Assembly: GCF_009931435.1 (NCBI RefSeq)
Contig: NZ_CP043414.1
Origin: Escherichia coli
GTDB taxonomy: Bacteria > Pseudomonadota > Gammaproteobacteria > Enterobacterales > Enterobacteriaceae
Strand: one strand, 5' to 3'
DNA: 64,000 bases
This document shows, piece by piece, positions 12,001 through 15,000 of the stretch (position 1 is the stretch's first letter; each line of letters starts with the position of its first letter). The position numbers were made by a program.

Positions 12001-15000
12001 ACAAAAGGGAAAAGGAACCGTTCCATTCCGTTAGATGATGAACTGCTGGCTGAACTACCCGAAACAAAAGGCGCTCTGTTTCCAAAGCCCTGCTATAACG
12101 CTTTCCGTTCCGCTCTGGAACGTGCTGGCATTGAACTACCAGCAGGTCAGCTTACCCACGTACTACGCCATACATTTGCCAGCCACTTTATGATGAACAG
12201 CGGCAACATTCTGGTTCTCCAAAAAATCCTCGGCCATGCCGATATCACTATGACAATGCGGTATGCGCATTTCGCCCCAAGCCACCTTGAAGACGCTGTG
12301 CGACTTAATCCCTTAAAATGCCGCAGCAGCTTAGAAATACTGTCGAGTACCAAAACATAAACAACAAAGATAAAAGGTCTCTAACCTGTTTTCAGCAACA
12401 ACCACTGGAGGAAAACAACAACAATGTAGATTAAAGTTACAGACCCCAGAAACAGCAATAGTTGACAAAAATGAATAAAGGCCGGATGGTGAAGTTTTTG
12501 AGGAACCAAGGTTATATTTCGTGCAATTCCTTCTTTACATCTCACTGTGAGCAACGCGGGTAAGTCAGTATTTATCGACATAACCTCACATCGTATAGAT
12601 TCATGTGGTGCAAGATAATCAAACAACATAACCTGCCTTTCTTCGGCATCACTCTTAATTGTGTAATGCCTTGAGGGCCAAATGTTTACGTACATAGGTG
12701 GGTAATTGAAAATTATCTCCACATTAGTAGCAGGTTCTTTTCCTTCGTTTTTAAAGGCATAGGATTTTGTATGCACCACCTGTTTTGCCTTAACAATTTC
12801 ACCTTCAGCATTACGTAACGGCTCGTTAATTAAATAGCTATATTGGTGAAGCTCTCCATAGCAAATTTTCGCTCCATTTTTAAAAATCTTATTGATAAAT
12901 AAGGTAAAAACAGGAACGAAAAGTGCAAATATTTCTTTCCCATACTGAGTAAGTATATTCATTACTTGTCCACAAAAAGTTGAAATGGTTACCCACCGTG
13001 TTCCTAAAGCAGTCGTTCACCCTACTCTAGTTCTTAGAATAGAAATTCTACATAACTTCAAGCAGCTAACTCAACATAACAATTGAAAAGGTAATCACTC
13101 TGTAAGCGTACCCATTTTAATTTCAGCCGCTTTCTGGCTTGCAGCCGCTACCCCCGCATTGCGCGGTGCATTTCGCCCCAAGCTACCTTGAAGAAGCTGT
13201 ACGCTTAACCCCTTAAAATGTCGCAAAATTGTCGCGACAGCTTAGAAACACTGCCGAATACTCACGAATATTAACTAACGTAACTTATTGATAACACTGT
13301 AAGTTACTGTTTTTCGTAGATAGTTAATGCTTTATAATATAGCCTGTGCTATATCTGTATGTAATGCAATCATCCCTCAAGGATCGACGGGATTAGCAAG
13401 TCAGGAGGTCTTATGAATGAGTTCAAGAGGTGTATGCGCGTGTTTAGTCATTCTCCCTTTAAAGTACGGTTAATGCTGCTCTCTATGTTGTGCGATATGG
13501 TCAACAACAAACCGCAGCAAGATAAACCTTCCGATAAATAGCGGCGTCGCGGTACGCCGCTTCACTCCTGCTTTTATGCAGGCACAACGCGTTTTGCTCT
13601 GAAAAACCCCACTTTTTGTCGGATTTGCAATCCCCTTCGCAAAAGATTTGTTCGTCAGTAGTTGACCTGAACGGCAGCTCGCTCTATCTTCTTGCAGCCC
13701 TGCGTATATTGCGGCTCGCGGATGCGGACCCTTTTCCCCTCTTCACGCACTCTTGCAGGTATTGACCCTTGACGCCAGGGTAAGCACATGGCGTTTGTTA
13801 CGATAGTGGCATATGAATTTAACCCTCAAAGAATCGCTTGTTACCCGTAGCCGGGTATTTAGCCCGTGGACTGCGTTCTACTTTTTACAGTCGCTATTAA
13901 TTAACCTCGGCTTAGGTTACCCCTTCAGTTTGCTATACACCGCCGCATTTACGGCTATTTTGCTTTTGCTATGGCGAACATTGCCTCGCGTGCAAAAAGT
14001 TCTGCTCGGCGTCAGTTCACTGGTCGCCGCTTGTTATTTCCCTTTTGCACAGGCCTACGGCGCGCCTAACTTCAATACCTTGCTGGCATTGCATTCCACC
14101 AATATGGAAGAGTCGACCGAAATCCTGACGATTTTTCCGTGGTACAGCTACCTGGTCGGCTTATTTATTTTTGCGCTCGGCGTAATAGCAATCAGGCGGA
14201 AAAAAGAGAGCGAAAAAGCGCGCTGGAATACCTTCGACAGTCTGTGTCTGGTATTCAGTGTGGCGACATTTTTTGTTGCTCCCGTGCAAAATCTGGCCTG
14301 GGGCGGCGTATTTAAACTGAAAGATACTGGCTATCCGGTATTTCGTTTTGCTAAGGATGTCATCGTCAATAATAACGAGGTGATTGAAGAGCAAGAACGG
14401 ATGGCAAAACTTTCCGGAATGAAAGATACCTGGACGGTCACTGCCGTTAAGCCGAAATATCAGACCTATGTGGTGGTGATCGGTGAAAGTGCGCGTCGCG
14501 ATGCCCTCGGTGCCTTTGGCGGTCACTGGGATAATACCCCGTTTGCCAGCAGCGTTAACGGTTTGCTTTTTGCTGACTATATTGCCGCCAGTGGCTCCAC
14601 GCAGAAATCGCTTGGCTTAACACTCAATCGCGTAGTCGATGGCAAACCACAGTTTCAAGATAACTTTGTCACCCTGGCAAATCGCGCGGGCTTCCAGACC
14701 TGGTGGTTTTCCAACCAGGGTCAAATCGGCGAATACGATACCGCTATCGCCAGCATCGCCAAACGGGCAGATGAAGTGTACTTCCTGAAAGAAGGTAATT
14801 TTGAAGCAGATAAAAACACGAAAGACGAAGCGTTACTGGATATGACCGCTCAAGTGCTGGCACAAGAGCACTCGCAACCGCAGCTGATTGTTCTACATCT
14901 GATGGGCTCACATCCACAGGCCTGCGACCGGACACAAGGCAAATACGAAACCTTTGTGCAATCGAAAGAAACGTCGTGCTATCTCTATACCATGACGCAA

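Follow-up and report, generated by a model that had tools for sequence, protein, structure and literature searches.

Phages of the P2 group integrate into their hosts at several known sites, namely locI for P2, tRNA genes for 186 and HP1, and ssrA for Fels-2. A second set of precedents is provided by active lysogeny and regulatory prophages, of which the comK phage of Listeria and the Stx phages in the mlrA/yehV locus of E. coli are examples. Here we describe a P2/HP1-family prophage that ends immediately upstream of mntS in Escherichia coli, within a 64,000-nucleotide stretch of contig NZ_CP043414.1 (assembly GCF_009931435.1), hereafter called the window and numbered from its first letter. 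The reading that we favor, with good confidence, is that this boundary is the attR of a prophage integrated in the spacer between mntS and mntR, the gene of the manganese-responsive regulator MntR, and that both the repression of mntS and the expression of mntR are largely preserved. Literature searches on a prophage at mntS, mntR, rybA or opgE returned no description of such an attachment (att) site, and the case is one of ordinary site-specific integration at an apparently undescribed site.

The prophage and its junction with the host

The window is a segment of the E. coli chromosome in reversed orientation relative to K-12, and host synteny is kept to the right of the prophage, where mntS is followed by opgE/ybiP, ompX, rhtA and dps. 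Positions 1-13344 hold the right-hand 13.3 kb of a ~30.9 kb P2/HP1-family (ESSI-2-like) prophage, as defined by colinearity with an annotated relative: window positions 1-20000 are colinear with, and 99.3% identical to, NZ_CP106924.1 (E. coli MFDS1016424), in which the prophage measures 30,869 bp from core to core and mntR stands at its far end. The annotation of the MFDS1016424 prophage includes P2-family structural genes (capsid, GPO scaffold, gpM, portal and large terminase), together with Ogr/Delta, a replication endonuclease, a Dam methylase, CII, Fil, a cI-type repressor and a tyrosine integrase, and the open reading frames (ORFs) across window positions 1-11303 are consistent with a P2-type gene set. 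In the window itself, the cI-type repressor lies at 10722-11303 on the plus strand (Pfam Phage_CI_repr and Phage_CI_C, with the start taken from the annotation of the relative) and is followed on the same strand, at 11305-12360, by the tyrosine integrase (Int) of P2/HP1 type, which carries the Pfam domains Phage_integrase and Int_N (PF00589 at 1e-23 and PF24624 at 5e-31, respectively). The closest solved structure to this protein is that of the HP1 integrase, 1AIH (E=4e-63), and two further solved integrase chains match strongly. Escherichia phages ESSI2_ev015, ESSI2_ev129 and ESSI2_ev040 show 87% nucleotide identity over 93-94% of window positions 1-10600, through their replication, methylase, portal, terminase and capsid modules. 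The match ends ahead of the repressor-integrase-att module, for which a megablast search of 50,697 phage records gave no close DNA match.

In K-12, mntR and mntS are divergent genes separated by a 185-bp spacer (mntR ATG at 2903 and mntS ATG at 3089 of the K-12 segment L001). Within this spacer lies a 12-bp core, TATAATATAGCC, that is identical in attB, attL and attR and constitutes the crossover region; it occupies 3009-3020 of L001, 14959-14970 of the MFDS1016424 segment L003 at attL, and 13333-13344 of the window at attR. For the commoner phage variant the block of identity is 9 bp, TATAATATA. The core is repeated directly at both prophage ends in the relatives, and attB is uninterrupted in non-lysogens. 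It forms the centre of a near-palindrome, GCTATAT-A-ATATAGC, composed of the right half of one MntR operator, Box A, and the left half of another, Box B. We propose that, within the mntR-mntS spacer, a P2/HP1-family tyrosine integrase recombines at this core of 9-12 bp (TATAATATA[GCC]), with the halves of the palindrome presumably serving as its inverted core-binding sites.

From 13345 onward, 68 bp ahead of the mntS start codon, the sequence is unambiguously host. The first-pass annotation had the host leader resume ~150 bp before that codon, which is wrong: identity to K-12 begins 80 bp before it, at the core, and the annotated junction was ~70 bp off. Which control elements stay with mntS depends on this ~70-bp difference. 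Other statements of the same annotation held. The prophage does lie directly upstream of mntS, as the Pfam assignments of repressor and integrase and the colinearity with the P2-family prophage of MFDS1016424 attest; divergent mntR is indeed the neighbour just beyond mntS in K-12; and the insertion does part the two genes in near-identical lysogens, where they stand ~31 kb apart. Neither mntR nor a second copy of it is present in the 64-kb window, because the window begins inside the prophage, whose left end and attL fall beyond its left edge. The genome from which the window derives presumably shares the arrangement of its relatives, in which the far end of the prophage adjoins mntR.

The interval 12963-13332 proved to be phage DNA throughout, and comprises the leader of a cargo gene, a defunct duplicate of the 3' part of int, arm repeats, a site resembling the consensus for integration host factor (IHF), and a core-proximal arm. 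The tandem arm-type repeats AAAATGTCGC / AAAATTGTCGC, at 13215-13235 on the plus strand, are putative integrase arm-binding sites; their motif, AATGTCGCAAAA, is found again at 15029-15040 of L003, within the attL arm of the relative. An IHF-consensus site, TATCAATAAGTTA (pattern WATCAANNNNTTR), is found at 13281-13293 on the minus strand, and a second is present in the attL arm. The core-proximal arm, TAGATAGTTRATGCTTTA, is kept in every phage variant. The attP reconstructed from the two ends, AGATAGTTAATGCTTTATAATATAGCCATTGCTAAAT, matches the host double operator at 26 of 35 bp; its junction had no exact match in IMG/VR, so this attP is deduced rather than observed.

Occupancy of the site across genomes

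The state of the spacer was counted in 5421 matching E. coli genomes and the presence of the integrase in 5426. The spacer is uninterrupted in 5392 of the former and split in 29, and the integrase lineage occurs in exactly 29 E. coli genomes. Nucleotide identity over the segment from int to att is 99.5-99.9% in six genomes and 86-88% in 23. Every lysogen inspected, including four further E. coli genomes that were checked one by one, has the identical junction. Furthermore, all 13 IMG/VR loci (13/13) with an Int of at least 83% amino acid identity have it in the same place ahead of an mntS orthologue, and these orthologues represent several different sequences. Among the IMG/VR relatives with Int identity of 77% or less, no MntR box was found in the fetched flanks. 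Salmonella phage S.Kent 1-2-1 was considered as evidence for use of the same att site and was rejected, since its Int is 76% identical, other cargo follows int, and no MntR box is present.

To the other side of the core, the sequence is shared widely in the family. An exact search with the 27-mer ATAGCCTGTGCTATATCTGTATGTAAT, which covers most of Box B and the TGTAAT hexamer beyond it, in one genome per species gave matches in 98 Enterobacteriaceae species. Three of these 98 species-representative genomes are lysogens that carry this integrase lineage and have the identical junction: Citrobacter sp. R56, C. amalonaticus AUH_CA_2023_1 and Buttiauxella sp. A111. We suggest that the site is used because its sequence is so extremely conserved across the Enterobacteriaceae. 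In C. amalonaticus AUH_CA_2023_1 the int gene is frameshifted, and E. coli PSJ-16 carries a heavily deleted prophage remnant with a truncated int. Such decayed copies sit at the same site, and the mntR-mntS split therefore outlasts inactivation of the phage. What is left in the decayed copies includes pieces of tail and head genes.

A separate observation concerns a record titled Chryseobacterium sp. 18061, which carries an enterobacterial mntS operator region. Over the ~120 bp compared it does not differ from Citrobacter sp. 18056, which belongs to the same study, and the record likely reflects assembly contamination or mislabelling.

Operators and promoters on either side of the core

Documented MntR targets include mntS, mntH and dps; MntR repression of mntS is documented for K-12, and dps is on the list of MntR-repressed genes (PMC4207228). 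In the window, Box B, ATATAGCCTGTGCTATAT, is intact at 13337-13354, with an exact ATAGC-N4-GCTAT core at 13339-13352. This palindrome had been singled out in the first-pass annotation as an MntR-box-like site, rightly so: it is a perfect match with the same core as the boxes of mntH (ACATAGCAAAGGCTATGT) and dps. Matches to ATAGC-N4-GCTAT number two in the 64-kb window, against 0.05 expected. The second, ATAGCCGGTGCTAT, lies in the dps promoter at 17436-17449, 50 bp upstream of dps, and serves as an internal control for the motif. The MntR operator string itself was not found in the literature searched. Box A stands in tandem with Box B, 19 bp from centre to centre; its consensus is (A/T)TAGC-N4-GCTAT, with the perfect ATAGC-N4-GCTAT in 16 species and TTAGCAATAGCTAT in E. 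coli.

An alignment of 90 distinct uninterrupted spacers from 90 species revealed a conserved order of elements, which reads from mntR to mntS as CATTGTAAAC, a 16-bp variable stretch, GCACAAAAAATTAACG, Box A, the core, Box B, CTGTATGTAAT and CA. On the mntR strand, the footprint TTGTRC-16-TACAAT is located at 2956-2983 of L001, 26-53 bp to the mntR side of the core, and is conserved with TACAAT in 84 of the 90 species, TTGT in 88 and the 16-bp spacer in all 90. It is likely the sigma-70 promoter of mntR, with a predicted start ~46 nt before the mntR ATG, and it differs from the in-silico mntR promoter of Shimada 2014. In Leclercia adecarboxylata NCTC13032, a GC-rich, repeat-like insertion of ~250 bp lies between the conserved ACAAAAAATTAACG block (TTAACG) and Box A, so that the blocks of the mntR promoter and of the mntS operators are separated naturally and are thus separable.

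On the mntS side, TGTAAT at 13360-13365 (plus strand) is the likely -10 hexamer of mntS (rybA). The dinucleotide CA at 13371-13372, 6-7 nt after this hexamer, is conserved across the 90 species, and transcription of mntS likely starts near 13372, with A13372 as the predicted first nucleotide. An older rybA annotation, in which the RNA begins 43 nt ahead of the mntS start codon, is in accord with 13372 and is not a test of it. The rybA RNA is 205 nt in length (PMC4361602), and an RNA of that length starting at 13372 would finish at a run of T residues at 13570-13575. A terminator scan detected no canonical terminator after mntS, and the supplements of Martin 2015 list no primers that define the rybA start. 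The 5' untranslated region of the putative RNA folds into a hairpin, ATCCC...GGGAT (13372-13393, plus strand), whose stem is kept in other species with different sequences. Beyond it are the Shine-Dalgarno sequence AGGAGG of mntS at 13403-13408 and mntS itself at 13413-13541 on the plus strand; its 42-amino acid product, MntS, has exactly the K-12 sequence. Compared with shuffled sequence, the putative 205-nt RNA shows no advantage in fold energy (z=-1.15), and its fold is of illustrative value only. In this predicted fold (13372-13576), the CAGGAG of the mntS Shine-Dalgarno region forms base pairs with a CUCCUG that directly precedes the 3' T-run, and by this pairing the 3'-end structure of rybA could be coupled to translation. 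An Rfam scan of the window gave no match to a RybA family.

Integration divides these elements between the two prophage ends. At attR, the core, Box B in its perfect form, TGTAAT, the conserved CA start motif and the leader all stay with mntS, which loses host Box A together with the conserved A-tract/TTAACG block. It gains a phage-supplied look-alike of Box A, ATAGTTAATGCTTT, at 13320-13333 on the plus strand, in the register of the host box; read against K-12 Box A, this sequence agrees at 8 of 10 consensus positions, and the arm segment that contains it is kept in every phage variant. At attL, as seen in the relatives, mntR retains its conserved promoter, the A-tract/TTAACG block, Box A and the core, and loses Box B. 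The attL of the window-type phage supplies mntR with a hybrid Box B', ATAGCCATTGCTAA, that agrees at 9 of 10 positions, and that of the common variant supplies a poorer one, ATAACCTTCTTTAT. No coding sequence is interrupted, and the MntS and MntR proteins are unaltered in lysogens. Because the crossover falls between the two conserved MntR boxes, and operators and conserved promoter blocks are kept on both sides, a gross regulatory effect is unlikely: MntR probably still represses mntS, and mntR is probably still expressed, largely as without the prophage. Altered manganese control in lysogens, as raised in the first-pass annotation, is possible but probably overstated, and would probably be modest. 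Any such effect should be quantitative, since mntS would be without the second operator and the A/T-rich block upstream of it, and mntR without Box B.

Several points weigh against this interpretation. The transcription starts of mntS and mntR are deduced from sequence, and preserved regulation is predicted from the anatomy of the two junctions; the far prophage end and attL were seen in relatives only, being outside the window here; and the invariance from Box B to TGTAAT stems from the pattern of the 27-mer search and is not independent evidence. Also, TTAACG is conserved in 82 of the 90 species, and TAnnAT is present at the core in ~71 of them. The best in-silico promoters of Shimada 2014 are TTAACG-16-TATAAT for mntS and ATTACA-18-TATATT for mntR-ybiR, so that both -10 hexamers are inside the core and each -35 lies across it. 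If these promoters are real, integration splits both and their intact copies face into the prophage; with the -35 elements replaced by phage DNA, the expression of both mntS and mntR would be changed substantially.

There is evidence on the side of this split-promoter view. RpoD holoenzyme binds the spacer in vitro (Shimada 2014), and TTAACG/TATAAT and ATTACA/TATATT are its best consensus matches there. TATAAT is a perfect -10 hexamer, and TTAACG stands at a fixed 15-bp distance from it in the species that have it. Our own promoter scan found ATTACA-18-TATATT independently, at 13365..13336 on the minus strand, where it now faces the prophage. We nevertheless judge the breakage of both promoters to be unlikely. 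The Shimada sites are in-silico picks and not mapped starts; the spacer from TTAACG to TATAAT is really 15 bp, which is short for sigma-70; and the TAnnAT pattern is accounted for by the edges of the two boxes. The better-conserved mntR promoter, with its invariant 16-bp spacer, is wholly on the mntR side, and ATTACA-18-TATATT is probably not the main mntR promoter. Moreover, the 205-nt rybA RNA suits a start at ~13372 and not at ~13345, and the Leclercia spacer accommodates 250 bp of extra sequence between TTAACG and the boxes.

A more far-reaching proposal is that a lineage of P2-type phages has evolved an attP that mimics the double MntR operator and integrates exactly between its boxes, that lysogeny uncouples the shared control, with MntS or MntR partly derepressed or held at a different set-point, and that manganese, through MntR:Mn bound at attB, attL, attR or attP, could steer integration or excision, or expression of the terminal cargo genes. 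We hold this proposal to be quite improbable.

Cargo, the rest of the window, and known systems

Between int and att, the prophage of the window carries a cargo ORF of 193 amino acids with hydrophobic termini (12381-12962, minus strand). Pfam and PADLOC gave no match to it and PHROGs nothing usable; a homologue (66% amino acid identity) adjoins int in Yersinia phage vB_YenM_324. A promoter-like site, TTGAGT-18-TAGAAT, detected by consensus scan only, lies upstream of the ORF at 13045-13074 on the minus strand. The ORF is found in six of the 5426 E. coli genomes; the other 23 lysogens are without the cargo cassette, and in these the stop codon of the integrase gene is 168 bp from the mntS ATG. 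At about 13131-13245 (plus strand) the 3' end of int is repeated in degenerate form, with a 1-bp deletion; this duplicate aligns with window positions 12270-12345 and also with the int 3' ends of cassette-free relatives. Judging from these alignments, the duplicate marks the place where the cassette was inserted. The cassette region, 12361-13245, is bracketed by the working int 3' end and this duplicate, and recombination within int was apparently the route by which the cassette was gained.

The left-end cargo and the attL arms also differ between the two phage variants. One variant has a 411-amino acid protein without a Pfam match (15257-16492 of L003). The common variant has a 257-amino acid hexapeptide-repeat protein, annotated as a serine acetyltransferase (4824-5597 of segment L187), with Pfam Hexapep matches below the curated cutoff and a start ~78 bp from the att core.

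It could be supposed that the halves of the host manganese-responsive promoters at attR and attL drive these terminal cargo genes and place them under the control of MntR and manganese. All of them face inward (the 193-aa ORF at attR, and the 411-aa ORF or the hexapeptide acyltransferase at attL), the acyltransferase of the common variant begins close to the core, and attR keeps a complete ATTACA-18-TATATT and Box B directed at the 193-aa ORF. We see only a slim chance of this. The host promoters concerned are only predicted and are probably not the main ones, the 193-aa ORF is 367 nt from the site and has a promoter-like sequence of its own, and 23 of the 29 E. coli lysogens are without that ORF. 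Inward-facing cargo genes at prophage ends are, in addition, generally common. Finally, an assembly artefact or an illegitimate recombination event, which might be entertained for the single junction in the window, is refuted by the recurring attL/attR pair, for the same junction, with the core duplicated at both ends and always accompanied by the same integrase lineage, is present in independent complete genomes and in other genera.

Elsewhere in the window, two AT-rich islands, at 33650-37652 and 55964-60397, each consist of two large ORFs in divergent orientation, of 670 and 561 aa in the first island and of 765 aa (with pentapeptide-like repeats) and 550 aa in the second; the pairs look paralogous. 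Both islands are absent from the otherwise near-identical lysogen NZ_CP106924.1, to which identity falls to ~95% to the right of ~34 kb. We take them to resemble EspX/EspY-type effector islands. The only Rfam matches in the window were a molybdenum cofactor (Moco) riboswitch at 54470-54614 on the minus strand, upstream of moaA, and a naRNA4 element, derived from repetitive extragenic palindromic (REP) sequence, at 28779-28849 on the plus strand, both of which are ordinary for this chromosomal region.

The results define a precise att site for P2-type phages of the ESSI-2-like group, with a core of 9-12 bp that has an MntR operator to either side, and illustrate how a palindromic and highly conserved transcription-factor operator can become a phage target. 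The lysogens, 29 of 5426 E. coli genomes as well as those of Citrobacter and Buttiauxella, amount to natural split-operator strains, which could reveal the role, if any, of the second MntR box and of the upstream block in the control of mntS and mntR. The cross-species footprint proposes both a promoter for mntR, TTGTRC-16-TACAAT, and a two-box architecture for mntS. The practical effect on manganese homeostasis is probably small.

In comparison with the P2/186/HP1 phages (Peduoviridae) and their site-specific integration by Int and IHF, this prophage has the same HP1-like tyrosine integrase, with int next to att and to the cI-type repressor, the same CII/Fil/Ogr-type regulators, and the same P2-type capsid and terminase genes. 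Its attP likewise has arm-type repeats, IHF-like sites and a short core in an imperfect palindrome. It differs from those phages in its attB, which here is the mntR-mntS spacer. Phages ESSI2_ev015, ESSI2_ev129 and ESSI2_ev040, as well as Cronobacter phage ESSI-2, have similar replication and structural modules but a different integration module. The operators of mntH and dps share with the mntS region the ATAGC-N4-GCTAT core and the extended A(C/T)ATAGC...GCTAT(G/A)T palindrome, whereas the mntS region has two tandem boxes, with MntR binding at Box A, and at the phage-derived look-alikes, being putative. As in active lysogeny, the host locus taken by the temperate phage is a functional one, and excision of the prophage would restore the original arrangement; unlike in active lysogeny, no gene is interrupted here, and each flanking gene keeps its operator and its likely promoter.

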